Shown: positions 9,641 through 26,516 of the stretch, piece after piece
Position numbering within the stretch: position 1 is the first letter of the stretch
Layout of the letters: every line of letters starts with the position of its first letter
Source: an uncultured Candidatus Saccharibacteria bacterium
Lineage (GTDB): Bacteria > Patescibacteriota > Dojkabacteria > J137
Length of the DNA stretch: 64,000 nucleotides
Assembly (NCBI GenBank): GCA_964414295.1
Contig: CAYPVU010000007.1
Coordinates: forward strand, 43,492-107,491
Reading direction: 5' to 3'
Position numbers and translations under genes: made by a program
The notes under the pieces: model-generated
Told to the model about the DNA's origin: nothing
Database searches by the model: none
The model's input: the letters and a program-made list of their open reading frames with translations, nothing else

Positions 9641-10336
9641 ATGAACAAGATTCATAACTTTCAATCAGAATTAATTAAAAAGGTTCAATTAACAGAATCT
9701 ATATATTTGCTTGACTATACTATTCCCGATACTTTTGTTTTTACTCCAGGTCAATTTGTTGGCGCAAGAGTAATTCCTACACACACAAGAGCCTACTCAG
9801 TTGCAGATATAAATAATAATGTAATGACACTATTAGTAGATGTAAAACCCCAGGGGATTGCATCGAAATACTTTGAAAAGGTACAGGTAGGTGAGTCAAC
9901 AAATTTATTAGGTCCTTACGGAATCTATAAAGTAAAAGATACAGATTTGCCAAAAGTATTTGTTTCTACAGGTACAGGAATTGCACCTTTTGTAGCTATG
10001 ATAAAAGACTTAAGAAAAAATAAACCTAATATCCCCGTTTATAATTTCTTTGGAATAAAGGTTATGGAACATGATATTGCTTTGCCCTTTTTTAAGGATC
10101 TACTGGCTAATAACTTTAAATTTATTAATTGTGTATCTAGACAAGAAATTGAAAATTTAAATGCAGTTAATAACCAAGAAATAAAAAAAGGAAGAGTTAC
10201 AGAAGTTATTCCTACATATAACTTTGATTGGATTAATACTGAATTTTACGTGTGTGGTGGGCCAGAAATGGTTACTAGTACAGCTATTCTTTTAAAAGAA
10301 CTAGGTGCAGATAAAATTTATATAGAAAAGTATTAA
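9641..10336 (+). CDS. Ferredoxin-NADP reductase-like FAD/NAD(P)-binding oxidoreductase
   Basis: RAYS (RxYS FAD-binding motif) and GTGIAPF (NAD(P)-binding motif). Confidence 0.6.
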   Translation: MNKIHNFQSELIKKVQLTESIYLLDYTIPDTFVFTPGQFVGARVIPTHTRAYSVADINNNVMTLLVDVKPQGIASKYFEKVQVGESTNLLGPYGIYKVKDTDLPKVFVSTGTGIAPFVAMIKDLRKNKPNIPVYNFFGIKVMEHDIALPFFKDLLANNFKFINCVSRQEIENLNAVNNQEIKKGRVTEVIPTYNFDWINTEFYVCGGPEMVTSTAILLKELGADKIYIEKY

Positions 10337-10337
10337 T

Positions 10338-10643
10338 ATGATTTTTACTATCAACTTTTTAAACCTTAAAATCAATTCAGAAAATTATTCTAATTTCCAT
10401 TCTAAGGTAGTTGAATTTTGTGAAGATTGTTTAGTGCACGATTGTAATACAGAAGAAGGGTTTACAATTCAGTTAAAGTCTAGAGATTTTAATAATAAAG
10501 GAAGGGTTGAGTTAAAGGCATCTTATAATCAATCTAATTCAGTAGTTGTAGAAATTGAAAAAGAATTTCAAACCCAATGGTCACTAAGTAAAATGGAAGA
10601 ATTAGTAAAATTTCTACAAGATTATGACAAATCTTTTAAATAA
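10338..10643 (+). CDS. Hypothetical protein
   Basis: 101-aa ORF, co-directional and tightly spaced. Confidence 0.35.
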   Translation: MIFTINFLNLKINSENYSNFHSKVVEFCEDCLVHDCNTEEGFTIQLKSRDFNNKGRVELKASYNQSNSVVVEIEKEFQTQWSLSKMEELVKFLQDYDKSFK

Positions 10644-11583
10644 TCTTTCTAATACTTACGGTTTAGAATTTACCCAAATAATTAGTCATTCAGAAAAAGG
10701 CTATAGAAATAAAAATCTTATCCTAAAAACAGAGAGCCACAACTATAATCTAGTTATTTATAAGCGAGAAGAAAGTATTTTAAGAACAATCAAAAATACA
10801 AATCATTTTTATGAATATTTAAATTCTAATAATATACCTACAAGAAAAGTTATTAGAACTAAGAATAAAAAAGATATTATTGTTTTAAAATCTAATAACT
10901 TAAATTACTATGCTTCTTTATATTCTTACATAGAAGGAAATACTCTTCCGTGGGAAGGATGGAATAAATCCCACTTAAAAACTATAGGCTATACCCTTGC
11001 TTTAATTCATTCTTTTAAAACTCCAGAAAAGTTAACCTATTTGAATAATGTTATAGATATAGAAATTGAACATTTAAATATAATGCAGACTTACTTTTCT
11101 AATAAAGATGTATCTAGGGCATTAAGTACTAAATTAAAACTTTTAGTAAATAAGGATTATTTAGAAAGTTTCTACTCTACTTTTACTACATTAAGATCTA
11201 AAAAAAGTGTAAGTCTTTTACATATGGACTTAGTTAGGGGAAATGTAATTTGGAATAATAAAAACTTAGCAGGAATTATAGATGGTGAAAAAGTATGTAA
11301 TGGACTACCTATTTTTGAAGTTGCAAGAACATTTTCTTTTTTATTAGTTGACTGTAAATACAAATCTGCAAAAGAAGTTTTTAAATACTTTTTAGTAAAA
11401 GGGTATTTAAAAGAAAGAAAGTTATTTAACGGTGAGTTTTTGCAAACCTTAGTAGATTTTTATTTGATTTATGATTTTTATAAGTTCTTAAAACACAGCC
11501 CGTACGAGTCTTTAGAAAAAAATGAGCATTTTTTGAGAACAAGATTTATACTATTGAAAAGAAAAATTCTAATTACTCAATGA
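10624..11583 (+). CDS. Aminoglycoside/choline-kinase-like phosphotransferase (APH fold)
   Basis: Catalytic loop LHMDLVRGNVIW (HxDxxxxN) and IIDGEKV (DFG-like). Confidence 0.55.
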   Translation: MTNLLNNLSNTYGLEFTQIISHSEKGYRNKNLILKTESHNYNLVIYKREESILRTIKNTNHFYEYLNSNNIPTRKVIRTKNKKDIIVLKSNNLNYYASLYSYIEGNTLPWEGWNKSHLKTIGYTLALIHSFKTPEKLTYLNNVIDIEIEHLNIMQTYFSNKDVSRALSTKLKLLVNKDYLESFYSTFTTLRSKKSVSLLHMDLVRGNVIWNNKNLAGIIDGEKVCNGLPIFEVARTFSFLLVDCKYKSAKEVFKYFLVKGYLKERKLFNGEFLQTLVDFYLIYDFYKFLKHSPYESLEKNEHFLRTRFILLKRKILITQ

Positions 11584-12296
11584 ACCACCTAGAAAGAATA
11601 AAAAAATTAAAGGTTTTATTTGATGACGGACAAATTCCAACCTTAGCTGTTCACGAAGTCCATCCTGATTTACCTAAGAACGATAGAATAAATTATATCT
11701 ACTTTACTCTACCTGTTAGTATTAACTTTCAAAGAAGTTCACCAGCAATGTGGCAGGCTGCTTTTGCAACCTATAATGATCCAGAAACTAATTATTTATT
11801 TTATCCAGAAGAAGTTGTAAAAAGAACCAGAGAAGAAGTAATGAGAGATTTAACTAAACACAAACTTGGACTTCAAAAAAATAAACATACTGATATTTGG
11901 ATAGCATTATCGACTACCCTATTTAATGAATATAGTTCTGATCCTAGAGAAATTATAAAAAAAGGAAGAGGTTGTGCAGTTCAAGTTAAAAATATTCTAA
12001 TAAATAATAAAAAGAAATTTCCTTATTTGAACGGACTTAAATTATCTAATTATTGGCTGTATATCTTATCTAAATATACAGACGTAAAATTGCGTAATTC
12101 TCATAAGATCTCAATAATTCCTGATACTCATGTAATTCAATCAACAATTAAATTAGGTCTTTCACCGGATAATGTAACATCAGCACAAGTAGAACAGATC
12201 TGGGAAAGTTTATTAAAAGAAAGTGGAATTTCACCTGTAGAAATGCATCCTGTGTTATGGAATTGGAGTAGAAACAATTTTTTACCTAGCGTTTAA
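11580..12296 (+). CDS. Hypothetical protein, possible HhH-GPD (endonuclease III-like) fold
   Basis: FPYLNGLKLSNYWLYIL...IIPDTHVIQSTIKLGL resembles an HhH followed by the VDTHVxRV..RLGL segment of EndoIII/AlkA-type glycosylases. Weak. Confidence 0.3.
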   Translation: MNHLERIKKLKVLFDDGQIPTLAVHEVHPDLPKNDRINYIYFTLPVSINFQRSSPAMWQAAFATYNDPETNYLFYPEEVVKRTREEVMRDLTKHKLGLQKNKHTDIWIALSTTLFNEYSSDPREIIKKGRGCAVQVKNILINNKKKFPYLNGLKLSNYWLYILSKYTDVKLRNSHKISIIPDTHVIQSTIKLGLSPDNVTSAQVEQIWESLLKESGISPVEMHPVLWNWSRNNFLPSV

Positions 12297-12313: not shown

Positions 12314-12868
12314 ATGAAAGCATGGAAGAAAAGATTAGTTGATCAAAGTGATTTAATGACACTTCAAGAAAAACTAAAAGAAAAAGGAAAAAAGGTAGTC
12401 TTTACTGCAGGGTCCTGGGATTTACTTCATGTAGGTCAAACAAGATATTTAGAAGAGGCAAAAAGCTATGGTGATGTTTTAGTTGTTGGTGTTAGCAGCA
12501 ATGCTGCAATTAGAAAGGTAAAAGGACCAAATAAACCGATTCTAGATGAAATGATTAGAGCAGAAATGCTTACTTATTTAAGATCTGTTGATTTTGTAAC
12601 TATTTTACCTGAACCAAGTTGTCAGCCTACTTTAGGTTTATTAAGACCAGATGTATATGTAACAGTAAAAGAAGATTGGACAGAAAATTATAAAGAATCT
12701 AAAGAATATAAAACTGTAGTTAAATATGGAGGGGAAGTAATAATTGTAGATAGACAGTCTACTACTTTATCTACAACTAAAATTGTTCAAAGAGCCATTG
12801 GCGGACACTTAGGCGAAATCTTTAAAGACTTTATTGAATTAAGAAAAGATCCTTTAAAAGAAAAATAA
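12314..12868 (+). CDS. Cytidylyltransferase-like nucleotidyltransferase
   Basis: VVFTAGSWDLLHVGQTRYL (HxGH-like nucleotidyltransferase motif, as in RfaE domain II / GCT-type). Confidence 0.6.
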   Translation: MKAWKKRLVDQSDLMTLQEKLKEKGKKVVFTAGSWDLLHVGQTRYLEEAKSYGDVLVVGVSSNAAIRKVKGPNKPILDEMIRAEMLTYLRSVDFVTILPEPSCQPTLGLLRPDVYVTVKEDWTENYKESKEYKTVVKYGGEVIIVDRQSTTLSTTKIVQRAIGGHLGEIFKDFIELRKDPLKEK

Positions 12869-12891: not shown

Positions 12892-14235
12892 TTATAAAGT
12901 CTGTAATTTGAGATTTTCTAAAAATGGCCATGGAGTTTCTTGCATATGCCAGTAATCGCTATCTAAAAAGTAAAGATTTCTATGGTCATTTAAATAGTAT
13001 TTAAGAACCAGGTAGTCGAATGGGGATTCAACTACTACCCTACGTGATGATTCTGCACCTGCTCTTAATTCTTCTATATTATTAAATACTTTATTAGAAT
13101 TTACCCAATTTAATTGAGTTAATAATAGTAAGTAAATTGCTGCACTTGTAATTATAAATTTAAGATCTTGTCTGCTTACATAAATACCAATCCATACTAT
13201 AAATACTACAGATAAGAATATTAAATATCTTGGTAAAAAGATATTAATACCAAATAAACTTACGATTGTTACTGCAACAATATTAAATAAAAGCAATTTA
13301 GAAATTCCTTTTACAACTTTATTCTTCTCATCAAACCCTTTTAAAATAAATATAATTACCAGTACTAACAATACAATGAATACGGGAGTTAGGTTTTCTA
13401 TAAAATTAAATTTAAATACCGGTTGTTTAGAAATGGCTTGGTTGTCTAACCCAAATATAAATGAGTATAAAACTTCTCCAATTTCTAATGGCTGTGCATC
13501 TGATAACCAGGAAGTATGAGTTATATTTTTAGGAAAGATTCTATAATCTCCATTACTAATCATTCCTTTAAATAATATAAGAGCTAAGATTGCTACCATT
13601 GCAATCCACATTAACTTTTCTAGTTTAGGAAATAACCTGAGTACAAAAAATACACCAAAACTTAAAATTAAAGGAATACTTAAGTAGTGTGTAAATATCA
13701 TTAAAATACTTACAACTGCTAAATATTTAAAGTATCTTAAATTAATTAGTGATTTTACATCTTTAAATTTAGTACTGTATATTTTTAAAAATAAAACAAC
13801 AGCTACTAAAACTTCTAAAGCCAGCATAATATAAGATCTTGCTTCTAAAGAATACAAAATAAAAAATGGGCTTAACGAAAATATTCCAGATGTTATTAAT
13901 GCTGCTTTTGTACCAATTAATCTTTTTATTAAATAATAAGAAGCAATAATTAACCCTACTCCAAATATAAAAGAAAACCCCTTAAGTGCAAGTTCGGTAT
14001 TCCCCCAGATTGCAGTCCATAACTTTAATAAAAGATAATAAAGTGGTGGATGTACTCTATCTTGTGCAATGATAGAAAAGATTCCATTTAAATCTTCTCT
14101 TACCATAATTCCGCTAAATGCCTCGTCGTACCATAACGAAGAATTGTTTAACACATTTAATCTAGAAATTATTCCTAAAACTAGAATAGGCAGAAAGCTT
14201 ATTAGTCCTATATTCTTAAGAATTTTTTGGTACAT
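12892..14235 (-). CDS. GT-C family membrane glycosyltransferase (PMT/ArnT-like)
   Basis: About 11 predicted TM helices. WYDEAFSG (DE motif in the first periplasmic loop of GT39/GT83 enzymes). Confidence 0.6.
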   Translation of the reverse strand: MYQKILKNIGLISFLPILVLGIISRLNVLNNSSLWYDEAFSGIMVREDLNGIFSIIAQDRVHPPLYYLLLKLWTAIWGNTELALKGFSFIFGVGLIIASYYLIKRLIGTKAALITSGIFSLSPFFILYSLEARSYIMLALEVLVAVVLFLKIYSTKFKDVKSLINLRYFKYLAVVSILMIFTHYLSIPLILSFGVFFVLRLFPKLEKLMWIAMVAILALILFKGMISNGDYRIFPKNITHTSWLSDAQPLEIGEVLYSFIFGLDNQAISKQPVFKFNFIENLTPVFIVLLVLVIIFILKGFDEKNKVVKGISKLLLFNIVAVTIVSLFGINIFLPRYLIFLSVVFIVWIGIYVSRQDLKFIITSAAIYLLLLTQLNWVNSNKVFNNIEELRAGAESSRRVVVESPFDYLVLKYYLNDHRNLYFLDSDYWHMQETPWPFLENLKLQTL

Positions 14236-14308: not shown

Positions 14309-15280
14309 ATGTCACTTTCACAGGAGGAAATGAAGAACGCCCGAACTTCAGGCAATTACGATCACATTTGGCAGAACACTGGTAAATGCGTATTTTGCGA
14401 CTTAAAAGATAAATATATTATTCATAAAGAAAATGGAATTGCTTTAACTGTAAACTTATTCCCCTATATTGATGGACAATTAATGGCTATTCCTTTAAGA
14501 CACGTAGCAAGTCCTAAAGAACTTACTCAAAGTGAATGGGAAACAATGCGTAAATTTGCTTACCTTGCTAGAAAAATGATAAAGGACATACATAAAATAA
14601 AAGGAATGTGGACTTTAATGCGGGAAGGTGGTGTAGATGCGCAAATGTCTGTGAGTGATCATTTACATATGCAGTTTATTCCTTTTGATAAAGCAGATCT
14701 ATGTACATGGAATTATAGAGAATTAAAACATACTCCAATAGAAAATGCCGATCTATATTTAAAAAACATTAAAGAGTTTATTAAGGACTATAGTAAATTT
14801 GATAATAAATATTTAAATCTTAATAGTGTTCCTGTTGTATTAGACTTAATGATAATTAACCAAGATAAAAAAGTTTGTTTCCAAGAAAGAAAAGATGAAT
14901 ATAAATTTGATCCTGACATCTTAACTTTGCCCGGCGGACATGTTGATAACTATTCAATAGATTTAAAACAATCACTAGCCAGAGAAGTAAAAGAAGAAAT
15001 TTGTTATGACTTAAATGTTGAGGAAATAACTTTAGTTGATTCTAGATTAAGTAGTTTAAACTGGCCAATTGATTTTAAAAATGTAGATCAGAGAATTAGT
15101 CAGCCAAAAACGTTTTTGTGGAATACATATTTATTAACTAACTTTAATAAAGAAGATAGTTTAATTCCTGATGATGACTGCAAAGAAATTTTATGGCTTT
15201 CTGAATCTGATATTACAAAAGCTACAAATATTTCTAAAGAACTTAAACAAATAGTTTTACAAACACTAAAAGCATTATGA
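14309..15280 (+). CDS. HIT-domain / Nudix-domain fusion protein
   Basis: N-terminal half has the histidine triad HLHMQFIP. C-terminal half has the Nudix box LPGGHVDNYSIDLKQSLAREVKEEICYD. Confidence 0.65.
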   Translation: MSLSQEEMKNARTSGNYDHIWQNTGKCVFCDLKDKYIIHKENGIALTVNLFPYIDGQLMAIPLRHVASPKELTQSEWETMRKFAYLARKMIKDIHKIKGMWTLMREGGVDAQMSVSDHLHMQFIPFDKADLCTWNYRELKHTPIENADLYLKNIKEFIKDYSKFDNKYLNLNSVPVVLDLMIINQDKKVCFQERKDEYKFDPDILTLPGGHVDNYSIDLKQSLAREVKEEICYDLNVEEITLVDSRLSSLNWPIDFKNVDQRISQPKTFLWNTYLLTNFNKEDSLIPDDDCKEILWLSESDITKATNISKELKQIVLQTLKAL

Positions 15281-16230
15281 GAATTGATTGGAACGAAATT
15301 GTATTTAAAGATAAATCAGAACTTAAGGCAAAAAACTATATTTTTATAGTTGGATTTAGAGAAATATCTTCTAAAAGACTTTTAGAATTGGTAAAAACGT
15401 ACTTACCTAAATCCAATTTGTTAATAGGGGCCTTAAGAGAAGACTACATAGAGGGCTTTGAAGAACAACCACAATTTAAGACAATGTCTAAAAGTAAATT
15501 AAATAAGTTTGTTGAAAAACTTAATAGTTCTAAATTACAAAATTCTTTAGATTTAATTGAATACTTTCAAAGAGATACTGCAGCTATTATAAGCAAATTA
15601 AAACCATCTCAAGTTATTTTAGTAAATGGCTCGTGGTCTAAAACTTTTCACTTAAGACCGGAGTTTTTTGAATTAGTTAAAAATAATATTAAATATAAAT
15701 TTGTGTCTCCATTCAGTACAGAAGAAGAAGCTAAGGAATATGCAATTAATATGGAGTCAACAATTAATAATCTTATTGAATTAGATTTTAAAAAAGAATT
15801 TACGGATAAAGAGTTAATGCAGCTTGTTAAGTCAGTTTCAAAAAAATCATTTGATTGGACTTATCAAATAGGTGCATTACTTGTAAACAATAATAAAGTA
15901 GTTCTTTCTACTTACAATAAGACTCTTCCCTATAGTACTTATGCAATGCATTTTGGATCTAATAGAGAAAAGGAATTTAGTCCGCCTGGAGATCTTAACA
16001 ACTACGATACTATACATGCAGAAGCAAACCTAATAGTAGAAGCCGGCAAAAAGAATATAGATTTAAGTAATACTTCAATCTATATAAATCTGCTCCCCTG
16101 CCCTACTTGTGCAAAGTTAATAGCAGAAAGCAATATTAAAGAAATTGTATATTCAGAAGATCATAGTGAAGGTTACGCTGTAAAGTTATTAGAGAGTATG
16201 GGTAAATTGGTTAGAAGAGTCGTTTTATAA
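15277..16230 (+). CDS. CMP/dCMP deaminase-domain protein with ~180-aa N-terminal extension
   Basis: HAEANLI (zinc-binding H(A/C)E) and PCPTCAKLI (PCxxC) in the C-terminal third. ATGA overlap with the upstream gene. Confidence 0.65.
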   Translation: MRIDWNEIVFKDKSELKAKNYIFIVGFREISSKRLLELVKTYLPKSNLLIGALREDYIEGFEEQPQFKTMSKSKLNKFVEKLNSSKLQNSLDLIEYFQRDTAAIISKLKPSQVILVNGSWSKTFHLRPEFFELVKNNIKYKFVSPFSTEEEAKEYAINMESTINNLIELDFKKEFTDKELMQLVKSVSKKSFDWTYQIGALLVNNNKVVLSTYNKTLPYSTYAMHFGSNREKEFSPPGDLNNYDTIHAEANLIVEAGKKNIDLSNTSIYINLLPCPTCAKLIAESNIKEIVYSEDHSEGYAVKLLESMGKLVRRVVL

Positions 16231-16314
16231 ACTTACACTCCCCTTACTGCACTCTACTTATACTAAAAAGTTAAACCTGCTATACTTTTACTAATATCTT
16301 TAAAAATTCTTCTA

Positions 16315-17133
16315 ATGAAAGGTAAAAATTTTTTATTGGTTTTTACAATACTAGCTGCATGTTTAACTATTAGTATTCTTCTTGTTGCAGTTACATTGCT
16401 TGCAACAAATACTATTAATCAGAATAAACAAATTGAAGAATTAAAGACTCAAATAGATTCAATGAACTTATCTCAAGGTACTTCAATGCCTACAGAAATA
16501 GAAGAAGATACTTGGTCAGTTACTACAAAATCAGATATAGAGGAAACAGCAAGTTATTCTGTAAGTATTTTATATCCTAACTTTTCTCATCCTCAACATA
16601 TGGATATAGCTTCAGATTTAAATAATTATGTATCTCAATCTATTCTACAGTATAAAAAAGATACAATGTTTACAGACACAATTAGCAGTTCTAAATCTAC
16701 ATTAGATTTAGATTATGATATTAAATTTTTAAATGATAACTTAGTAAGCTTATTAATATCAGGTAGCCAATACAGTGGAGGAGCTCATCCAAGCGGAGTT
16801 TATATTTCTATAAATTATGATTTAAAAAATAATCAACCTTTAGAGTTGCAAGATTTATTTAATCCTGCATCTGGTTATTTAAATTCTCTTTCTATTAATA
16901 CAAAAGCAGCTTTATTAGAAAAATTTGGTACAGATGCAGATGAAAGCTTTATTGAAGGTGGAACATCTGCAGAAGTTAATAACTTTAAAATATTTAATAT
17001 CTCTGATGGCAGGTTAATTATTACATTCCCTGAATATCAGGTAGCTCCTTATGCAGTAGGTTCTCAGCAAGTAGAATTAAATTTAGATGATTATAGTTCT
17101 ATGTTTAGATCTGAATTCTCAGCTCTATTGTAA
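16315..17133 (+). CDS. Membrane-anchored DUF3298/DUF4163-like protein
   Basis: N-terminal TM helix. The SGSQYSGGAHPSGVYISINYDL segment is typical of the DUF3298 (RsiV-like) fold. Confidence 0.5.
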   Translation: MKGKNFLLVFTILAACLTISILLVAVTLLATNTINQNKQIEELKTQIDSMNLSQGTSMPTEIEEDTWSVTTKSDIEETASYSVSILYPNFSHPQHMDIASDLNNYVSQSILQYKKDTMFTDTISSSKSTLDLDYDIKFLNDNLVSLLISGSQYSGGAHPSGVYISINYDLKNNQPLELQDLFNPASGYLNSLSINTKAALLEKFGTDADESFIEGGTSAEVNNFKIFNISDGRLIITFPEYQVAPYAVGSQQVELNLDDYSSMFRSEFSALL

Positions 17134-17138
17134 TGATT

Positions 17139-17168
17139 AAGCGGCGGGCTAAAGCCCGCCGCTTTTAA
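17139..17168. terminator. Bidirectional rho-independent terminator between convergent genes
   Basis: gcggcgggc-taaa-gcccgccgc perfect 9-bp GC stem followed by ttttaatt on the plus strand. Lies between the + gene ending at 17133 and the - gene ending at 17169. Confidence 0.75.
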
Positions 17169-18686
17169 TTAATGTGTATTTCTTTGGAATTCCCCAGAAG
17201 TTGAAATTAAATTAAGTGGTGAAGGATTTATATTTTGCATTTCCGTTACATCTTTTGCTCCTCTAAATACTAAAGATAAAATTGCATCTTCAATTAGTAG
17301 ATGTAAATTATAGGTTAAAGTTGGTCTTACATGTTTTATATAGCTCATTGCAGCTTTTGTAACTTCTCCTTCTACAAAGGATGGAATATCAAAAGGTAAT
17401 AGTTTCCCATCTAAGTATTTTGTTCTGGCAGATGCTTCTCCACCGTAAGGTTTAAACATCTTTCCATTACTATCTACGCAGTATAGTATTCCACCAGGAG
17501 ATTCAATTGTCCCTCCACTAACTATTCTGCTTACACTTATTCCACTAGCTCCCAATAATAAAGATACAGCAATATGATCACTTGCTCCGCCTTCAGCAAT
17601 TACAGGTATATTTATTTCTCCTCTTAATGCAAATACAAGTTCCGGCCAATCTATTGCTGAACCACTTCTTACCCCGGTAATGCATCTTCCTCCGCCTCCT
17701 ATTCCTACAAATAATCCATCTGCTCCTGCTGCTTCTAAATCTTTTGCCTGTTTTACATCTACAACTTGTCCTGCCCATATTTCTACACTATCACCTAATT
17801 CTTTTCTTAATACTTTTACAGTTTCTAGTGCTTCTGTACCAGGTTCAGGTGAATATACTCTAAAGCTTCTTACGCCTGCGTCATAAAGTGCCTGAGCTCT
17901 AACCATTACCTTTTTAGGATTTGTTTCTAATGTTCCACAAACATTTCTTTTCCACATTTCTAATATCTCTTCTTTATCTTCTCTATTTTGTAATATTTCT
18001 TCTGCCATTTGATCTAGCCATACAAAAACTTCTTTTGCTAAATCAGTTTGTCTTTCTAAAGAAGAAGTTAAACCGTTTCTTGGGACACCCGCTAAACAGT
18101 GACTTGCAGCCATTGTTGCAATTGCTGGTGCACTATTCCAAACATCTGGAGATGCAGAACTTACAAAAATGCTTCTAGCTTGTCTGCCTAATTTTACAAA
18201 TGGACCGCTAGCATATCTTTCTTTTCTACTTATTCTTTGATTCTGTGAGCCTTCAATTGAAGATCCTAAATCTCCTACAGATAATGCAATCCCATTTTTT
18301 AATGCATAATCAATTGCATTTGATTTTACTTTTTTAGGTGCTTCAAAATTTCTTTTATTAACTTCTTTTAAATAATGCATTCTTAATGGATGATTAAACA
18401 TTTCTAAAAAGAATCTTCGCATTCTTAATGTTTCTATTAATTGTTCTTGCGGAAGTAAACTTAACGATTTTATATCTAAATAATCAAATGGAGTTTGAAG
18501 TAATCCTTGACTTGGATATACATATTTTGCTTCTTTACTTAATGCATACCATTTCTCTAAATAATTATGATGATTTTTTTCGTGTTCTTCTAATGCTTTT
18601 TTTATTCTTTGAGAACCAGATTCTGGATTCATTAATTCTTCATAATCTTCACGCAGTTTATCTAATGAAATACTTTTTTTAGCCAT
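17169..18686 (-). CDS. IMP dehydrogenase/GMP reductase family protein
   Basis: GIGGGGRCITGV (catalytic Cys loop, cf. GIGPGSICTTR), IAEGGASDH (cf. IADGGI..GD), and AGADGLFVG. Position of the Cys loop near residue 330 of 505 as in full-length IMPDH. Confidence 0.65.
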   Translation of the reverse strand: MAKKSISLDKLREDYEELMNPESGSQRIKKALEEHEKNHHNYLEKWYALSKEAKYVYPSQGLLQTPFDYLDIKSLSLLPQEQLIETLRMRRFFLEMFNHPLRMHYLKEVNKRNFEAPKKVKSNAIDYALKNGIALSVGDLGSSIEGSQNQRISRKERYASGPFVKLGRQARSIFVSSASPDVWNSAPAIATMAASHCLAGVPRNGLTSSLERQTDLAKEVFVWLDQMAEEILQNREDKEEILEMWKRNVCGTLETNPKKVMVRAQALYDAGVRSFRVYSPEPGTEALETVKVLRKELGDSVEIWAGQVVDVKQAKDLEAAGADGLFVGIGGGGRCITGVRSGSAIDWPELVFALRGEINIPVIAEGGASDHIAVSLLLGASGISVSRIVSGGTIESPGGILYCVDSNGKMFKPYGGEASARTKYLDGKLLPFDIPSFVEGEVTKAAMSYIKHVRPTLTYNLHLLIEDAILSLVFRGAKDVTEMQNINPSPLNLISTSGEFQRNTH

Positions 18687-18826
18687 ACAAAAAGGTTAAA
18701 AAATAATAGCTCTTAATTGAGGAAAAAATAATAAATGGAGATGATTTAATCTTTTATTCATTATGCATTCTTATAATATAGGACAAAACAATTCTAGTCT
18801 AGTTTAGTACGGGATTTTTTATTGTT

Positions 18827-20452
18827 TTGTGTTTGGAATTTTGTAGTGTAAAATATTTAGATTTTAAAATAAATATGTCCACTTCTGATTGGCCTTTATA
18901 CTACAAGAATAAAGTTCATGTTGCTAATACAAAAAGCAATGTTGGAATTCTTACCCTCTGGACTCCAATGCAGGCAATTCTACCTAATTTAAATCAGAAA
19001 ATGTTTAGTGTAGGCGGTCAATTATATTCAAAAAGAGGTTTAAATTTTGTAATAAGAAATATTCTAGCTAATCCTATTATAGATACTTTAATTATTTGCG
19101 GAAGCAATAGAAGTGAAAGTGCCGAAAGTGTAATGAACTTTTTAGATAAAGGAATTGATGGTGATTATAATGTAATTGGAGTAGAAAAATCTCCAATTGA
19201 TAAGGAAATACCTTTAGAAGTAATTAACGAAATAAGATCTAGAATTAAATACATTAACCTAGTAAATAATTCTTCGTTTAAAGCAGTGCAGGAAGAATTA
19301 AATAAATTAAATCCTAAAGAAGAAAATGAACCTTGGGCAGAAAGTAGAATCTTTCCTGATCCAGAACCAGTAACTGCAGATAAATTTCCATCAGAAAAAA
19401 CTATTTATACAATTAGAGGAGCTTATATAAAAGAGGTATGGCCACAGGTCTTAAAAAATATAATGAAGTTTGGAAGTAAAAAAGGAATGATTAAAGTAGG
19501 AGAAGTAAAAGAATTAGTTAATGTTGTAACAGTTATAGAAGAAGAAGATCCTAATAATCCTGATATTCCGGATTGGTTTAACTTTAATAAGGATGATTTA
19601 AAACTTTACTACAAAGGTTTTTTTGAAAAAGAAGCTATTGATGAAGATTACGGTTACGGTGCAAGAATGTTTTCTCATCCTTTAGGAGTTCCTAACCCAA
19701 AATATAAATCACCTAACAATACAAAAAAAGCAGAAAAGTTTAATCAAGAAATTGCTGTACAAAATTCCTTTATAACTTTAAATCAAATAGAAGAAGTTTA
19801 TTTAAAGTTAAAGAATTATAAATACGATAGAGGTGCTGTAGTTTCAATCTGGAATCCATGGGTAGATAACATTGCAGAAGGTTGGATGAGTGATAAAGAA
19901 AAAAGCAAATCGGGTAATGTTCCTTGTATGACTCAGCTGCAGTTTGCATATAGAGAACATAAATTAATGCTTACTGCATACTTTAGAAGTAATGATATGT
20001 ACGATGCTTGGCCAAGGAATGCATTTGCATTAAGAAAACTTCAATATGATTTAGCAAAAAAGCTAGATATGAAAGTCGGTCATCTTACAATAATTTCTTC
20101 TTTAGCCCAAATTTATGATGGCAATTGGGAATCCGCTACTAAATTATTAAGTAAATATAAGAATATTACTTTTTGCAGACCTGATCCAAGAGGTACTGTA
20201 ATAATAGAACTTGATGGGGAGGATTTAGTTGTAAAGCATATGGATACAAGTGGAAATAATACTTTGCAAGAGTTTAGGACAAGTGGTAAGCAGCCCAAAG
20301 CAGCACAAATAATGAGCGATATTTTGCTAGAGAATTTAATTTTTGCAGAAATGCCTCATGCAATGGATATTGCAAGAGAACTACAAAAAGCAGAACTTGC
20401 AATTAAACATGGCTTTACTTTTGTTCAAGATAAGGAGCTAGTAATTAAGTAA
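18827..20452 (+). CDS. Thymidylate synthase (ThyA) family protein with ~190-aa N-terminal and ~100-aa C-terminal extensions
   Basis: AVVSIWNPW...NVPCMTQLQFAY (nucleophile Cys, cf. APCHAFFQFYV), YFRSNDMYDAWPRNAFALR (cf. [20 protein letters not shown]; the Asn is retained, so dUMP-type specificity), and GHLTIISSLAQIY (cf. GDFVWTGGDTHLY). Confidence 0.7.
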   Translation: MCLEFCSVKYLDFKINMSTSDWPLYYKNKVHVANTKSNVGILTLWTPMQAILPNLNQKMFSVGGQLYSKRGLNFVIRNILANPIIDTLIICGSNRSESAESVMNFLDKGIDGDYNVIGVEKSPIDKEIPLEVINEIRSRIKYINLVNNSSFKAVQEELNKLNPKEENEPWAESRIFPDPEPVTADKFPSEKTIYTIRGAYIKEVWPQVLKNIMKFGSKKGMIKVGEVKELVNVVTVIEEEDPNNPDIPDWFNFNKDDLKLYYKGFFEKEAIDEDYGYGARMFSHPLGVPNPKYKSPNNTKKAEKFNQEIAVQNSFITLNQIEEVYLKLKNYKYDRGAVVSIWNPWVDNIAEGWMSDKEKSKSGNVPCMTQLQFAYREHKLMLTAYFRSNDMYDAWPRNAFALRKLQYDLAKKLDMKVGHLTIISSLAQIYDGNWESATKLLSKYKNITFCRPDPRGTVIIELDGEDLVVKHMDTSGNNTLQEFRTSGKQPKAAQIMSDILLENLIFAEMPHAMDIARELQKAELAIKHGFTFVQDKELVIK

Positions 20453-21565: not shown

Positions 21566-23296
21566 TTATGCTAAAGCATAAATTGATATAATCTTGTACA
21601 AGTTAATGGAGAGGTACCCAAGTGGCTCAAGGGGAGGGTTTGCTAAACCCTTAGGTCGGAGTAATCCGGCGCGCAGGTTCGAATCCTGTTCTCTCCGAAT
21701 TTCAGTACGAACAGCTTCTACAAGCTCGGATTGCATTGTTTTCTCAATGGTTATCAGCGGTTCGAAAATATTTTCTGCTACATTTGCATTTTCAAGCACT
21801 TTCGAACTTTCGTTCGTAATATCTACCACTTTCTTTAGAACCTTAAAAGGTTCCGTATATTTGTACTGCATTTTGCCGTTGTAGAGGGTTATATCTCCAA
21901 AGATGTATTTCATTAAGCCGCTTATATCCTCTGGGTCGAGAATATCGTAAATCTCGTCAGCATATTGGGCAACGAAATAAACTAACGTTCCAACCTGATA
22001 ATACTTATTGCTGTCTTTGTTTAATTTCTGAATCTGTTCTTCAATCTTTTCTTTTTCATCCTCTAATTGCTTATTCTTGACTTTGTAAATATCAAGGCTT
22101 ATAAGTTCATCCAGTTTGTCATCATAGAGTCGTGATTGCTTTTCGATTATTTGCTGTAACTCATCACTTAGGGAATCAACGGATATTTTTAAATACTGTT
22201 CTTGCTCTTTATTATCTTCCTTCAATGCTTTTTTAATCCATTCCTTTACTCTTGGCGATTGTACTTTCAAAGCTTTGAGAGCATTTGTTATAACTTCGTC
22301 ACAATCATCTTCACGACCACATTTATTTTGACTACATTCACGATGATGATTACATCTACCATAAATATGACCTTTCTTTTCAAACCAAGAGATTGAACCT
22401 TGGCATTCTTCACATCTGACTAAACCTTTAAGCATATAGAAGTGTTTACTATATTTTGCATCGGGTTTTCTGGATAATGCTTGTTGAACTCTAGTAAATA
22501 ATTCTTTACTAATAATTGGTTCATGTTTACCGTTCGTATAAACTTTCCCGTTCCATTGGAAAGCACCATAGTAAAAAGGATTGCGTAGAATTTCGTGCAT
22601 ACGGCTCTTCACTATCTTTCGACCTTGTTTATTTCGCATACCATCTGCATTCATCCTTTCGGTTAGTGTTTCAAGTGAGTAATTACCAGTTACAAATAAC
22701 TCAAAAGACTTTTTAATAAATTTTGCAGCATCTCCATCAACAACATGAATTTTACGTTTAGTACCCATTCCTTCTACAGATTTGTATCCAAGTGGAGCCG
22801 AGCCAGGATACCAACCTTGTTCAATCTTTTCGGTTTTACCTTTTCTAACTTCTTCTGATAGATTGTCAGCATAGTTTTTAGCCATTGCGACACGTATATC
22901 CCAATTTAATTTATCCTGAGACTTCGAATGTTTATGAAGTTCAAGAGAATCTTTTACGCAATGTAATTCTCGTCCTTCATCTGCTTCTAACCAGTTATAA
23001 ATATCGACACTAGAGTGTATTGAACGAGTTACTCTATCTACCTTTTCGAATACTAAAACGTCAATAGCTTCTTCTACTGCCAATTTAAGTATCTTATTAA
23101 ACTCTTTTCGTTCGTCTTTCTTGCTAGCTGATTCTGAGATAGTAAACACATGTTTTATATCCAGATTCTTTCTTTGAGCGTGTTCTGTAAGTAGTTTTAC
23201 TTGTGAAGGCAATGAGTATCCTTCAACCTCTTGGTCTTTTGAACTAACTCTAGCTACTACTATGCAACTTTTATTTGTGTTACTTTTTGTATTCAT
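21566..23296 (-). CDS. Large serine recombinase (resolvase/invertase-type catalytic domain + recombinase + zinc-ribbon domains)
   Basis: N-terminus CIVVARVSSKDQEVEGYSLPSQ (catalytic Ser motif). Central recombinase region, cysteine-rich CxxC..C..C segment, coiled-coil C-terminus. Its last ~45 codons are read antisense through the tRNA-Ser gene. Confidence 0.85.
   Translation of the reverse strand: MNTKSNTNKSCIVVARVSSKDQEVEGYSLPSQVKLLTEHAQRKNLDIKHVFTISESASKKDERKEFNKILKLAVEEAIDVLVFEKVDRVTRSIHSSVDIYNWLEADEGRELHCVKDSLELHKHSKSQDKLNWDIRVAMAKNYADNLSEEVRKGKTEKIEQGWYPGSAPLGYKSVEGMGTKRKIHVVDGDAAKFIKKSFELFVTGNYSLETLTERMNADGMRNKQGRKIVKSRMHEILRNPFYYGAFQWNGKVYTNGKHEPIISKELFTRVQQALSRKPDAKYSKHFYMLKGLVRCEECQGSISWFEKKGHIYGRCNHHRECSQNKCGREDDCDEVITNALKALKVQSPRVKEWIKKALKEDNKEQEQYLKISVDSLSDELQQIIEKQSRLYDDKLDELISLDIYKVKNKQLEDEKEKIEEQIQKLNKDSNKYYQVGTLVYFVAQYADEIYDILDPEDISGLMKYIFGDITLYNGKMQYKYTEPFKVLKKVVDITNESSKVLENANVAENIFEPLITIEKTMQSELVEAVRTEIRREQDSNLRAGLLRPKGLANPPLEPLGYLSINLYKIISIYALA
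21608..21697 (+). tRNA. tRNA-Ser (anticodon GCU), type II with long variable arm
   Basis: Cloverleaf read by eye: acceptor GGAGAGG/TCTCTCC, 3-bp D-stem, anticodon stem AGGGT/ACCCT with loop TTGCTAA (GCU), long variable arm, T-arm GCAGG-TTCGAAT-CCTGT, discriminator G. 90 nt, no encoded CCA. Confidence 0.85.
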
Positions 23297-23317: not shown

Positions 23318-23647
23318 TTATAATATTTTTTGTTCTAACATTCCTTTGAATTTTTGGCTTTTATAGACAAGGTTATTGCAAGTTCGACATGCCACAACGC
23401 CAGTCAAAGGATGTTTATATAGTTTTCCAATTCGTTTATTGCAGCGAGGGCAAGTAAACCAGAATCGTAATCCATATCTAGTCTTTGAGGTTGTTAGCTT
23501 TACTTCTAATCCTTCGACATTGATTTGCGACTTTATAAATGATTCCTTTGCCTGTAAATAGAATTGCTTAACTAAATCATTGATGTTGATTTGCTCAGCC
23601 GTTTCTACTAAAAAACTTCCTGAATCAATTGGCTTTATTGTTTTCAT
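23318..23647 (-). CDS. Small zinc-ribbon protein
   Basis: CPRCNKR...CRTCNN pair of CxxC motifs. 109 aa. Confidence 0.4.
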   Translation of the reverse strand: MKTIKPIDSGSFLVETAEQININDLVKQFYLQAKESFIKSQINVEGLEVKLTTSKTRYGLRFWFTCPRCNKRIGKLYKHPLTGVVACRTCNNLVYKSQKFKGMLEQKIL

Positions 23648-24239
23648 CTTGTGGTGTTGTTATTGAATTAAACTGCTGATTTTGCCCAACTATTGCTGTC
23701 TCAGCTTTTAGAGTGACCTTTAGTGACGGTGATTTAAGTTGCTGTAACGTTGTTAAAGCTGTTAGATATTGTCTGTTAGCTTTATCTATCTCTTTACTCA
23801 AGAAATTGTAGTAGTTGGTGTGGTCTGAACTTATTTTGACCGAATCGCCTGACATACAGTGCATTAACCTTCGTGAAAGTCCTAGAGACCTACAAAAAGC
23901 ATTTACAATAATTTCTACCAGTGACTTTTCTTGAATAGTTTTGCAGTTATGTTCTTTAATTAAGTCTTGCGTCATTTTGATAGCCATAGGAGCCATGTGG
24001 TCACCAACTGATTCTGCAAGGTTAAAATGCTTATCGAACTCGTAAACATGCCCAAAGATGTTTAGTACATCTTGTTCAACTCTGCTTAGCTTATCGGCAT
24101 CTTGCTCTTTGTTTTTTGCATAATCTAGTATTCGTAAGACTTTTCTAGTTATATATTCTGGTTCAAGATTATGATTACCTATACTTTCCAGTGCTGTTTT
24201 GATTCTATCGTCTAATGAAGTACTAATTTGTTTATCCAT
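23625..24239 (-). CDS. Hypothetical protein
   Basis: 204-aa ORF inside the island's minus-strand block. Confidence 0.35.
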   Translation of the reverse strand: MDKQISTSLDDRIKTALESIGNHNLEPEYITRKVLRILDYAKNKEQDADKLSRVEQDVLNIFGHVYEFDKHFNLAESVGDHMAPMAIKMTQDLIKEHNCKTIQEKSLVEIIVNAFCRSLGLSRRLMHCMSGDSVKISSDHTNYYNFLSKEIDKANRQYLTALTTLQQLKSPSLKVTLKAETAIVGQNQQFNSITTPQDENNKAN

Positions 24240-24248
24240 AAATGATTA

Positions 24249-25526
24249 TTAAGAAATAAATTTATCTAATTGCGAATCTAAATTTTTTACCCTCCCAGAC
24301 TGTTCACTATTGTTTCGTTCTAATCTTGTAGGGGTATAGCGTAAAATTCGCTTATCATTTCTATCTTGCTCAAGTTCCAAAAGCCCTGCTGTTTCTAGCA
24401 TTGGCAATATTTGCAGCCTTAGTTTGTTTTCCTCGAGTAGTTGACTTGTTTCCTCGTAATATCTCCTTCTAATGTCTTCTCGCTTAATACCGAATCGTGA
24501 AGTCTCTTTATGGCTTACATTCATTCGTATATATTCAGGAACTACAATATTCCAGTACAGGTTATAAATGTAGGGTGGAAGGTTGTATTCTTGTGGTTCG
24601 GAAAGTGAATCCCAGAGTCTATAGGCTTCACGCACATCTTCTTCTGTAGCCTCGATAGTGTTGCCGTATCTGTTTCTAAAAGGGAAATTAAGCAGACTGA
24701 TTACTTTGATTAGCGAAACAACTCTGCCAATGTCCCTCGTATGCCTTGGCTTAGGTGTTTTGCGTGTCTGCCAGAACAGTTCTACTATCAATTTCTTATG
24801 CTCGACTATATTTACATCGCTAACTCCCGATTCTTTTATGGCAATAATTCGCTCCATTAACTCACGACGCTTTGGATTTGAATTAAGTTGCTCAATGTAA
24901 TTATTAAAATCTGATTCTTTCTCGACTTTGGTGTATACAGACTCTCTAATCTTCTCACTATCAATTTCAGGCGATAAAAGCAGAAACCTTGTACCTTCCT
25001 GTTCGTCAATCTTCATGCCAGCACTACAGAAGATAACTGCTGGGTAGCCAATTAACTCAATTTCTTTCGTCTTCAACCCTGCTTTTTGTTTCTTGTCGGC
25101 AATTTGCACTCGTAGAACCTTCTCATCGTGGGAAAGTAGCGGTCTAAGTCTTTGCAGTAGTTCAGTGTGTGGCTGGTCTTGAAATATGATTATCTTATTG
25201 GATAAGTCGATAACAATGACATGCCTTGATTCGTCCCATTTACCAGTCCCATGAAAGAATGCCATGGGTGAACTGTAGGCAAGCGTCAGCACATCTTCTT
25301 TTGGAAAAAGTGTCGAAACTTCCATCGGAATAAACGACTTACCTGTAGACGAAGGTGCATTGAAGCTGATATTAAACTGAGAGTTTTCAGTGTAAATAGA
25401 GAGCATGCATAAGAACGCTACTAGCTTGTTCATGTTGTCCTTTTTGATTGTTAATTCGAGAATCTCGACTATCTCATTAAGGGTTATTGGTTCTAAAGAA
25501 GGTTTTTCGGTTGTTTGCATTTTCAT
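24249..25526 (-). CDS. P-loop NTPase, putative replication (primase/helicase-associated) protein of mobile element
   Basis: Walker A NAPSSTGKSF. Size and context (between the integrase and regulator genes) are typical of satellite/prophage replication modules. Confidence 0.4.
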   Translation of the reverse strand: MKMQTTEKPSLEPITLNEIVEILELTIKKDNMNKLVAFLCMLSIYTENSQFNISFNAPSSTGKSFIPMEVSTLFPKEDVLTLAYSSPMAFFHGTGKWDESRHVIVIDLSNKIIIFQDQPHTELLQRLRPLLSHDEKVLRVQIADKKQKAGLKTKEIELIGYPAVIFCSAGMKIDEQEGTRFLLLSPEIDSEKIRESVYTKVEKESDFNNYIEQLNSNPKRRELMERIIAIKESGVSDVNIVEHKKLIVELFWQTRKTPKPRHTRDIGRVVSLIKVISLLNFPFRNRYGNTIEATEEDVREAYRLWDSLSEPQEYNLPPYIYNLYWNIVVPEYIRMNVSHKETSRFGIKREDIRRRYYEETSQLLEENKLRLQILPMLETAGLLELEQDRNDKRILRYTPTRLERNNSEQSGRVKNLDSQLDKFIS

Positions 25527-25546
25527 ACGTAATAAAAACTAAGTTG

Positions 25547-25954: not shown

Positions 25955-25983
25955 AAATAAATTTGTTAATAAATAAAATACTG

Positions 25984-26425: not shown

Positions 26426-26516
26426 AAAGTTAAAAACTTATATGACTTGATTTTACGAAGCAAGTCTTTCGCAAACCATTAGCGAAACGATGGGAAAGAT
26501 TGGGGGATTGATGGGA

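Follow-up and report, generated by a model that had tools for sequence, protein, structure and literature searches.

The canonical route from dCMP to dTMP, by dCMP deaminase, ThyA and DHFR, is represented by the Cd/Td/Frd set of phage T4 and, in a setting nearer to the locus analyzed here, by an operon of Saccharibacteria with the order DHFR, APH-like kinase, cytidylyltransferase-like protein (CT), HIT protein, extended deaminase and canonical ThyA. The ThyA family (PF00303) also includes an archaeal type of thymidylate synthase (TS), described by the NCBIfam model TIGR03283 ("thy_syn_methano"). Protozoan DHFR-TS and the flavin-dependent ThyX solve the recycling of dihydrofolate within the synthase, by fusion or by another reductant. 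Outside dTMP synthesis, the relevant comparisons are MtrA, the corrinoid subunit of methyl-H4MPT:CoM methyltransferase (PF04208; PDB 5laa, 8q3v), and the Kennedy pathway, with its pair of choline/ethanolamine kinase and CTP:phosphoethanolamine cytidylyltransferase.

We have analyzed a window of 64,000 nucleotides from an uncultured Candidatus Saccharibacteria bacterium placed by GTDB in the Dojkabacteria (contig CAYPVU010000007.1). The chromosomal surroundings of the genes described here include a Mur ligase, an aminoacyl-tRNA synthetase, RsmA and tRNAs. All the ORFs named by the original prediction, which had been made from the sequence alone, were found in their places and the domain calls were significant. 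The features are the following:

9641-10336: FNR-like reductase, upstream of the HIT-Nudix gene, confirmed by domain search
10624..11583, + strand: APH-like (choline/ethanolamine/homoserine-kinase-like) small-molecule kinase, first gene of the cluster (Pfam APH, E 2.4e-9)
11580..12296, + strand: orf238, 238 aa, an interposed ORF outside the conserved cluster
12314..12868, + strand: cytidylyltransferase-like (HUP class) nucleotidyltransferase, the CT (Pfam CTP_transf_like, E 7.8e-12)
12892..14235, - strand: PMT_2-family membrane glycosyltransferase, interposed, outside the conserved cluster (Pfam PMT_2, E 2.8e-9)
14309..15280, + strand: HIT-Nudix fusion, 323 aa (HIT at nt 14363-14695, Nudix at nt 14846-15241)
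15277..16230, + strand: extended dCMP deaminase, 317 aa (N-domain at nt 15277-15810, then the zinc deaminase domain)
16315..17133, + strand: secreted PdaC/DUF3298 protein (Pfam), interposed, outside the conserved cluster
17169..18686, - strand: IMPDH-family protein, 505 aa, a CPR-specific form, interposed (Pfam IMPDH, E 5.4e-22)
18875..20452, + strand: TS3, 525 aa; the ORF is open from 18827 and the likeliest start is the ATG at 18875, matching homologues
Domains of TS3 by domain searches, + strand: MtrA-like at nt ~18881-19321, TS core at ~19409-20161, PterinBD-DUF4346 at ~20183-20431

TS3 joins an MtrA-like Rossmann domain (PF04208, E 3.7e-9), an archaeal-type TS core and a PterinBD-DUF4346 domain (PF14251, E 6.3e-12). 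The extensions on both sides of the core had been noticed before and taken as of unknown nature; their presence stands, and they now have family assignments. The best HMM for the core was TIGR03283 (E 2.8e-36, model positions 2-200 of 201), at 124.9 bits, which is under the curated cut-off of 174.55 bits and counts against TS identity. As predicted, the Cys nucleophile, the R-S-x-D motif and the uracil-specifying Asn are present, and they proved invariant in an alignment of 40 homologues. Both catalytic Tyr are also kept, so that the dUMP-binding and catalytic set is complete; Cys, R-S-x-D, Asn and Tyr are common to archaeal-type TS, with which TS3 also shares a short core. The folate-closing C-terminal segment of ThyA (~55 aa) is missing and DUF4346 stands in its place. 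Unlike in the archaeal-type enzymes, the core lies between two other domains. The Dojkabacteria clade differs in two insertions of ~40 and 15 aa and in a Q at the His207 equivalent.

The AF2 model of TS3 had a pLDDT of 88.4, and the top Foldseek matches were thymidylate synthases and MilA; entries of protozoan DHFR-TS aligned through their TS part. The homology to MtrA extends over ~145 residues of a Rossmann-type domain and includes part of the nucleotide-tail pocket (Gly57, Val61 and Asn64 are kept). In contrast to MtrA, TS3 has no membrane anchor and lacks the His84/Glu54 cobalt-ligation network: a nearly invariant Ser takes the position of the cobalt ligand His84, and Glu54, Thr53 and Asn55 are likewise substituted. 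DUF4346 is modelled as ~85 aa with three strands and two helices, and no relative was found in the PDB. The MtrA-like domain is always followed by DUF4346, directly or past the inserted TS core, and both also form a contiguous stand-alone module adjoining thymidylate kinase (Tmk). Fusions of TS3 itself to Tmk were detected (L081, P0259). In the searchable literature we found no assayed member of the TS3 family, nor an assayed archaeal-type TS with these domains.

The deaminase also conformed to the prediction of a dCMP/cytidine deaminase domain behind a long N-domain. Residues 177-293 matched dCMP_cyt_deam_1 (E 1.7e-17), with HAE and PCPTC motifs and a zinc site that is intact in the sequence, and the 175-aa N-domain matched no family in the domain search. 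This extended form is widespread in the ultra-small CPR bacteria, with 451 homologues, and its N-domain keeps W5, R28, F67, S119, W120, H125, S144, E151 and A152 invariant. The AF2 model (pLDDT 90.7) gives the N-domain a Rossmann-like (HUP-like) fold, for which Foldseek returned only weak matches to cytidylyl/adenylyl-transferases (best E 1.6e-3).

The HIT-Nudix gene ends, and the deaminase gene begins, within a shared ATGA. The proposed fusion in the latter was borne out by matches to DcpS_C (E 2e-5; motif HLHMQFIP) and to NUDIX (residues 180-311, E 2.1e-8). The best PDB match of the HIT domain was the HIT Ap4A phosphorylase (6af2/3ano); among orthologues, 27 have the motif as HxHxH and 7 as HxHxQ. 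The Nudix box shows slight degeneration in this protein (GGHVDNYS...REVKEE), while its orthologues have the canonical form; the fusion is limited to a Dojkabacteria-like clade (L003/L010, L011, L014). The kinase and the CT recall the Kennedy pathway: a kinase orthologue (L007) additionally matches Choline_kinase, and the best PDB matches of the CT, a PF01467 protein, were human ethanolamine-phosphate cytidylyltransferase (ECT, 3elb), which is its best solved relative, HldC (5x9q) and CCT. The CT resembles GCT too, scores 120 bits against NCBIfam rfaE_dom_II, under the cut-off, and in many loci is a tandem form of ~400 aa, as ECT is tandem. Unlike in the Kennedy pathway, the CT motif is HxGQ (GSWDLLHVGQ) in place of HxGH, and the kinase-CT pair is found fused to HIT and, via HIT, coupled to dCMP deaminase.

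To describe the conservation of this group we used 85 TS3 loci in all, and counted neighbours within ±10 kb of TS3 in the 57 that belong to CPR. The conserved co-directional order in CPR is APH-like kinase, ECT/HldC-like CT, HIT, dCMP deaminase and TS3. The deaminase was near TS3 in 42/57 loci, the CT in 33/57, and HIT and the APH-like gene in 32/57 each; the APH-like gene was also present in 27/27 well-flanked loci of the extended deaminase. Compact versions have overlapping ORFs (L007, L009), and several fusions link the steps: APH+CT+CT+HIT (L048, L052, L056), CT+HIT, HIT+deaminase, and HIT+N-domain+deaminase (P0133, P0142, P0233), besides the HIT-Nudix and TS3-Tmk fusions. The association spans distant CPR classes whose gene orders differ (the kinase can be divergent and downstream), and because it recurs across lineages the co-location is far beyond chance. 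The suggestion that the upstream kinase and CT belong with the nucleotide genes was right.

Four unrelated genes, none of them a conserved TS3 partner, interrupt the cluster in the window. The protein encoded by orf238 had been called HhH-GPD-like, an identity that was not supported: it has no Pfam, NCBIfam or PDB match, and none of the 85 TS3 loci contains a homologue. The PMT_2 glycosyltransferase and the PdaC/DUF3298 protein are absent from the other TS3 loci. The IMPDH-like protein is there as proposed, with a GGGGRCITG Cys loop and without CBS domains (best PDB matches Lmo0132 and IMPDHs), and has 454 homologues in CPR at 60-84% identity, annotated as IMP dehydrogenase. No orthologue was found near TS3 elsewhere, the sole match being an ordinary CBS-containing IMPDH in an archaeal locus (L005), and the protein is a candidate for ordinary purine interconversion. 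The FNR-like reductase, also correctly recognized, is likewise not a conserved partner. The original prediction was mistaken in grouping the IMPDH-like gene, orf238 and the FNR-like gene with the others.

In the Saccharibacteria operon all these genes are embedded in the secE-nusG-rplKAJL region. Of 27 well-flanked metagenomic loci, 26 had ThyA (25 of these with DHFR) and one had TS3 without DHFR; the loci from Saccharibacteria are close relatives of one another, and counts from them are not independent. TS3 takes the place held by ThyA and DHFR in an otherwise identical operon. The operon frame and the flanking genes are common to both, as is the inferred dCMP-to-dTMP chemistry; the differences from the canonical route are TS3 for ThyA, without DHFR, and the extra conserved N-domain of the deaminase. 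DHFR was near TS3 in only 1/57 CPR loci, counted within the ±10 kb flanks (the genome may carry it elsewhere). The difference in DHFR between ThyA and TS3 loci gave a Fisher p of ~6e-19, uncorrected for phylogeny.

At least 193 species-level genomes, from CPR bacteria and DPANN archaea, encode this architecture, and TS3 occurs in >120 protein clusters. In DPANN, TS3 is beside a complete canonical ThyA-DHFR pair at L065 and L073, and near Tmk-ThyX at L059, L061 and L074. In CPR it is the sole TS within ±10 kb, except in one lineage (L004/L060) with a second, stand-alone archaeal-type TS adjoining it. Given these co-occurrences, simple redundancy between TS3 and a thymidylate synthase may not hold.

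Of the two readings offered by the original prediction, one was that these are building blocks of pyrimidine hypermodification; TS3 would then be a dUMP or dCMP hydroxymethylase, and the kinase, nucleotidyltransferase and other neighbours would decorate the base further. TS-family hydroxymethylases do have the fold of TS3, MilA among them; such an enzyme yields tetrahydrofolate, which would fit the absent DHFR; and the second TS of some genomes and the kinase and glycosyltransferase near many loci could be accommodated. We nevertheless consider it very improbable. The pyrimidine-specifying position is Asn, not Asp, in 40/40 sequences, so that TS3 is not a dCMP enzyme. TS3 comes after a dCMP deaminase, is adjacent or fused to Tmk in several genomes, is in CPR mostly the only TS nearby and occupies the ThyA slot. 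The kinase, CT and HIT are found equally with canonical ThyA and DHFR, so these three genes do not point to a modified base, and the kinase belongs with the APH-like kinases and not with the P-loop hmU-DNA kinases. TS3 is a conserved gene in a housekeeping chromosomal setting and not in a phage; the adjoining island starts only at tRNA-Ser (21607), and the TS of related bacteria carry the same extensions, a result that the original prediction had itself named as contrary to hypermodification. A different proposal keeps TS3 as a synthase but makes it corrinoid dependent: DUF4346 would hold a methyl-pterin, whose methyl would go to a corrinoid on the MtrA-like domain and from there straight to C5 of dUMP, activated by the Cys, by a MetH/Mtr-like logic; the pterin would leave fully reduced, so that no DHFR would be needed. 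Among relatives of the N-domain, the only ones characterized are cobalamin binders (PMC4915002), and the retained tail-pocket residues, the operons without DHFR and the parallel between pterin-associated, corrinoid-like and substrate-activating domains and the corrinoid methyltransferase systems agree with it. However, the cobalt-ligand positions are replaced and DUF4346 is unlike the known TIM-barrel methyl-pterin-binding domains. The conserved neighbours include no genes for corrinoid uptake or repair and CPR and DPANN are not generally known to make corrinoids. We judge this idea improbable as well.

It is possible, if rather unlikely, that only the deaminase and TS3 work together, with the kinase, CT, HIT and a GT4 glycosyltransferase forming an envelope pathway of phospho-alcohol or sugar activation (Kennedy/Leloir-like) that owes its place next to the dTMP genes to an old, inherited gene order; the extra TS3 domains would then be structural or regulatory. 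The resemblances of the kinase and the CT to choline/ethanolamine kinases and to ECT, CCT, GCT and HldC, tandem forms included, point that way; GT4 adjoins the cluster in 15/57 TS3 loci and 39 extended-deaminase loci, and synteny could be frozen within secE-nusG-rplKAJL. Yet the supposed boundary is bridged by fusions that are independent of each other (two or more forms of HIT+deaminase and, on the other side, CT+HIT and APH+CT+CT+HIT), and the association persists in distant CPR classes with other gene orders. The kinase-CT link to dTMP synthesis may still be partly inherited gene order, resembling, with GT4, the activation of envelope precursors.

The fallback of the original prediction, ordinary but divergent dTMP synthesis, is the best-supported reading, given the intact catalytic set and the ThyA slot. 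The genes probably form a conserved dTMP cluster of CPR with TS3 as its thymidylate synthase: the deaminase would convert dCMP to dUMP, and TS3 would methylate dUMP to dTMP. More tentatively, TS3 might be independent of a separate DHFR. Its MtrA-like and DUF4346 module could substitute for the missing folate-closing C-terminus of ThyA and hold or recycle the one-carbon pterin carrier, a role similar to that solved within DHFR-TS and ThyX, whereas the module is unrelated to DHFR or ThyX in sequence or fold and the recycling is suggested by gene-neighbourhood complementarity alone. A supply of (d)CMP by the kinase-CT-HIT trio is doubtful; the kinase and the ECT-like CT would build a (d)CDP-linked compound, and HIT (with the fused Nudix in this clade) would act on a cytidine-diphosphate-linked compound or on dCTP and pass the freed (d)CMP on to the deaminase. 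TS3 would be an unstudied three-domain synthase, with an accessory module and a kinase-CT-HIT trio whose roles appear to be undescribed.

All the ORFs of the original prediction are present where it had placed them, and the domain assignments are significant. The main ones are the following.

Features of the window (coordinates, strand, product and family match)
14309-15280, plus strand, HIT-Nudix fusion (Pfam DcpS_C, PF00293)
15277-16230, plus strand, dCMP deaminase with a 175-aa N-domain (PF00383), its start overlapping the preceding stop codon
17169-18686, minus strand, IMPDH-family protein (PF00478)
18827/18875-20452, plus strand, TS3, a ThyA-like protein (PF04208 at the N-terminus, TIGR03283 core, PF14251 at the C-terminus)

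TS3 matched PF00303 with 53.8 bits (Pfam gathering threshold 24.3) and its core matched the archaeal thymidylate synthase model TIGR03283 with an E value of 2.8e-36, at 124.9 bits against an equivalog cut-off of 174.55 bits. In Foldseek, the AF2 model (pLDDT 88.4) aligned to many ThyA structures with E about 1e-12 and a target TM of about 0.65, and MilA, a CMP hydroxymethylase, was also among the matches. By protein search, proteins of the TS3 architecture form more than 120 clusters in Dojkabacteria, other Patescibacteria, Woesearchaeota and Nanobdellota, usually annotated in the databases as 'thymidylate synthase', and when one genome per species was scanned, 193 genomes had a relative. By record title, the best 80 TS3 loci belong to 57 CPR bacteria and 23 DPANN archaea. 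TS3 represents a conserved family and not a fusion particular to this window. Its catalytic and dUMP-binding residues align with Saccharibacteria ThyA and with E. coli ThyA. The equivalents of C146, R166, S167, D169, N177, Y94 and Y209 (E. coli numbering) showed little or no variation among 40 TS3 sequences, the Pro-Cys nucleophile, the Arg-Ser-x-Asp motif, the uracil-specifying Asn and both catalytic Tyr being kept. The last ~55 residues of ThyA, the folate-closing segment, have no counterpart in this alignment, where DUF4346 follows the core instead, and TS3 also lacks IWDEW, the motif with which canonical ThyA contacts the folate. The stand-alone archaeal-type TS model is equally short, with 201 positions and an end just past the H-x-Y motif.

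The two 'extensions' that had been noticed around the ThyA-like core do exist, and they could be resolved as recognisable families. The N-terminus matched PF04208 (MtrA; 36.9 bits vs 25, E 3.7e-9) and PDB entry 5laa (E 1.3e-5), and the C-terminus matched PF14251 (PterinBD-DUF4346, E 6.3e-12), a domain for which we found no relative in the PDB. In MtrA the cobalamin is held by His84, which is hydrogen-bonded to Glu54, and is contacted by Thr53, Asn55, Gly57, Val61 and Asn64 (PMC4915002). In TS3 the position of His84, the lower axial cobalt ligand, is occupied by a nearly invariant Ser and that of Glu54 also by Ser; Thr53 and Asn55 are substituted and Gly57, Val61 and Asn64 are retained. The TS3 N-domain is MtrA-like, with the cobalt site missing. 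A profile search with the DUF4346 domain gave 1576 representative proteins, and the architectures sampled among them included TS3, TS3 fused to thymidylate kinase, and MtrA-like plus DUF4346 without a TS core. In the 273-aa protein P0273 the MtrA-like domain and DUF4346 are adjacent, a TS core being absent, and the gene for this protein adjoins a thymidylate kinase gene. The existence of this contiguous pair, which the NCBIfam family NF002128 spans, indicates that the N- and C-domains of TS3 are a single evolutionary module into which the TS core was inserted. The 'MtrA' label has been used as a marker of methanogenesis (e.g., PMC13473441). The 'MtrA' matches in DPANN or CPR genomes may be thymidylate synthase domains, a possible source of error when metabolism or ancestry is reconstructed.

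We have searched the ORFs of all the TS3 loci with the window proteins and counted those located within +-10 kb in the 57 CPR loci. A co-directional cluster was apparent in CPR, formed by an APH-like kinase, a cytidylyltransferase-like protein (CT), HIT, dCMP deaminase and TS3. The deaminase was near TS3 in 42/57 loci, the CT in 33/57, HIT and the kinase in 32/57 each and a GT4 glycosyltransferase in 15/57. At two loci, L007 and L009 (TS3 67-68% identical), all five genes are back to back with overlapping ends. Fusions among these genes were also found, namely APH+CT+CT+HIT (726-745 aa), CT+HIT (337-347 aa), HIT+deaminase (301-318 aa), HIT+N-domain+deaminase in Saccharimonadales (about 500 aa) and HIT+Nudix in the window and at loci L003/L010, L011 and L014. 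Thymidylate kinase is often the immediate neighbour of TS3 and is fused to it at locus L081 and in protein P0259. Unbiased clustering of the neighbours revealed no conserved alternative reductase beside TS3. In a Micrarchaeota locus (L066, 2059-3093) a dCMP deaminase encoded just upstream of TS3 carries a fused P-loop kinase-like (AAA_17/18) domain; the arrangement recalls the anti-phage dCTP deaminases, although its own context is housekeeping.

The deaminase of the window matched PF00383 (63.6 bits vs 25) with its H-A-E and P-C-x-x-C motifs, and H247, E249, C275 and C278 were invariant in 44 sequences; the ComEB equivalog cut-off was not reached (47 vs 219 bits). Its N-domain has nine invariant residues and was modelled (pLDDT 90.7) as a five-stranded Rossmann-like domain. 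The best structural matches, weak ones (E 1.6e-3 and weaker), were cytidylyl- and adenylyl-transferases, whose HxGH motif is absent here. We infer a nucleotide-binding role for this domain, either regulatory or in substrate delivery. An 'NGSW...FH' stretch of the N-domain is similar to the CT and may be a shared 'GSW...H' motif. A derivation of the N-domain from the second half of a tandem CT was also considered and rejected, since both halves of the ~400-aa proteins are true CT domains (>90 bits each) and hhalign gave only 2-10% probability between the N-domain profile and the CTs. In the HIT domain of the window the motif reads HLHMQFI, with the third His replaced by Gln as in 6 close orthologues, and HxHxH was found in 27 others. 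This domain scored 25.5 bits vs 24 for DcpS_C and 17.4 vs 21.5 for HIT, and among solved structures the mycobacterial Ap4A phosphorylase is closest to it. The idea that HxHxQ marks a GalT-like phosphorylase function throughout the HIT family was dropped because the motif is restricted to the Dojkabacteria-like clade. The Nudix domain matched PF00293 (34.7 bits vs 21.1); within its Nudix box (GX5EX7REUXEEXGU) REVKEE is present and the first Glu and the spacing deviate, the box being near-canonical in the orthologues. Both HIT and Nudix enzymes free a nucleoside monophosphate from a nucleoside-diphosphate-linked compound.

The window has a G+C content of about 30%, and among its genes are the housekeeping ones for RsmA, a Mur ligase, a class-I aminoacyl-tRNA synthetase and four tRNAs. 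The proteins most closely related to those of the window come from Candidatus Dojkabacteria and other Patescibacteria. The cluster of the window is the conserved CPR one, split by four genes that do not recur around TS3 at the other TS3 loci: the ORF at 11580-12296 (plus strand), a PMT_2 glycosyltransferase gene, the gene of a PdaC/DUF3298 protein and the IMPDH-like gene. The first of them had been described as HhH-GPD-like, a label without library support, with no match in Pfam, NCBIfam or PDB. The IMPDH-like protein matched PF00478 (78.7 bits vs 25.6) and has the Cys loop GGGGRCITG, every NCBIfam equivalog score was far under the cut-off and about half of the barrel aligns. It is a highly conserved CPR family annotated as IMP dehydrogenase, ordinary in this context, and we have excluded it from the neighbourhood to which it had been assigned, since no orthologue is found near TS3 elsewhere. 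Other features of the window deserve a record. The RsmA/KsgA dimethylase ORF (7012-8004, plus strand) has a C-terminal tail of ~70 aa rich in lysine and arginine that overlaps by 83 nt the start of the next ORF, a DUF2797 one (7922-8839, plus strand). A PF00591 (Glycos_transf_3) protein, of the family of thymidine/AMP phosphorylase and anthranilate phosphoribosyltransferase and possibly involved in nucleoside or AMP salvage, is located at 46059-47186 (plus strand), 26 kb from the cluster. A PLP-dependent (PALP) enzyme fused to a rhodanese (516 aa) is found at 55315-56865 (minus strand). ARAGORN predicted at 58312-58396 (plus strand) an 85-nt tRNA-Asp with anticodon ATC, both unusual for tRNA-Asp; with an Rfam score of only 42.8 bits, its identity may be mis-assigned.

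Downstream, the region ~21500-42300 is a probable genomic island, with G+C of 0.33-0.37 vs 0.27-0.30. It has two large serine recombinases, both on the minus strand (21566-23296 and 36207-37550), a 932-aa fusion of helicase and N6/N4 DNA-methylase (39489-42287, minus strand) and a series of ORFs (23318-27119) without a Pfam match. The first recombinase (576 aa) runs antisense over the entire tRNA-Ser(GCT) at 21607-21698 (plus strand), so that its last ~45 codons overlap the tRNA, which looks like an element integrated there. Att-type direct repeats of tRNA-Ser, sought to delimit the island, were not found.

The strongest evidence for TS3 as the thymidylate synthase of these organisms is the slot that it occupies in the operon. 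The extended deaminase, with 451 matches, occurs widely in CPR, and in Saccharibacteria it appears in the same operon, with DHFR at the start and a canonical ThyA of 269-272 aa at the end. A metagenome scan with the deaminase gave 27 adequately flanked loci, and the APH-like kinase, CT and HIT were present in 27/27. DHFR was nearby in 25 of the 26 well-flanked ThyA-type loci, in none of the TS3-type loci of the same scan (n=1) and in one of the 57 TS3-type CPR loci (DHFR with ThyA vs DHFR with TS3, Fisher p about 6e-19 when loci are treated as unrelated). Both the operon comparison and the DHFR counts indicate that TS3 takes the place of ThyA plus DHFR, suggesting that it is independent of a separate DHFR. 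No second thyA, thyX or folA was found within the 64-kb window. In several loci (L086, L087, L088 and L004) the dTMP operon or TS3 lies inside the otherwise universal secE-nusG-rplK-rplA / rplJ-rplL block, an insertion that Saccharibacteria share with one or more further CPR lineages.

The original prediction had proposed a pyrimidine hypermodification pathway, with divergent dTMP synthesis in a reduced genome as the fallback. The Asp expected at the N177 position of dCMP enzymes was not seen, Asn being invariant in TS3. Instead of a phage or mobile context with dedicated modification enzymes, what 57 CPR species have is a conserved operon on the chromosome, and the partner genes of TS3 also accompany canonical ThyA plus DHFR. 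All this argues against hypermodification, and the slot of TS3 supports divergent dTMP synthesis. From this slot and the thymidylate kinase (Tmk) fusions, we predict that TS3 turns dUMP and a methylene-pterin into dTMP. Room remains for a distinct role, as other synthases co-occur with it. TS3 adjoins ThyA-DHFR at the DPANN loci L065 and L073 and is near Tmk-ThyX fusions at L059, L061 and L074, and in one CPR lineage (L004/L060) a second stand-alone archaeal-type TS and a short deaminase are located beside it. Two co-occurring synthases are known elsewhere, e.g., in mycobacteria with ThyA and ThyX. The Tmk-ThyX fusions (L088 9542-11788, L059 2388-4679, L061 5412-8426) have 748-1004 aa, with ThyX apparently duplicated.

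Our data support a CPR operon that is conserved and seems not to have been described, and whose three-domain synthase is unstudied; a literature search on DUF4346, PterinBD, the MtrA+TS fusion and HIT+deaminase+cytidylyltransferase found nothing relevant. The operon might act along an unproven route, (d)CTP to a (d)CDP-linked compound, (d)CMP, dUMP and finally dTMP, which we propose because it matches the order of the fusions. The kinase, the ECT-like CT and HIT would turn (d)CTP into (d)CMP for the deaminase through a (d)CDP-linked intermediate. The best solved relative of the CT is the human ethanolamine-phosphate cytidylyltransferase, and the ECT-like tandem form is found in many lineages; the CT motif GSWDL(L/I)H(V/A)GQ, with HxGQ and not the HxGH signature of the family, appears both in the window (12314-12868) and in a Saccharibacteria orthologue (L087, 6930-7484). 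The kinase resembles choline/ethanolamine kinases, and a search for PDB relatives of it found none. Kinase, CT and GT4 could belong to envelope synthesis instead of feeding dTMP production. As for TS3, the MtrA-like plus DUF4346 module may bind and regenerate the one-carbon carrier with no DHFR required, or alternatively may pass it on by way of another cofactor or of a corrinoid that is not His-ligated. That both a self-sufficient, DHFR-free CPR/DPANN synthase with a module of either kind and a kinase-CT-HIT (d)CMP feed exist, previously unrecognised, is a tentative proposal that we consider rather unlikely in its entirety.

Thymidylate synthesis is essential and, to our knowledge, only two types of synthase are established, ThyX and the DHFR-dependent ThyA. 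Folate recycling in many reduced genomes is an annotation puzzle. If the proposal is true, a widespread CPR/DPANN synthase that replaces the pair of ThyA and DHFR together would be a candidate third solution, directly testable. The conserved kinase-CT-HIT trio, joined to dCMP deaminase by fusions, hints at an undescribed feeding or regulation of dTMP synthesis, the organisms being ones that depend on nucleotide scavenging.
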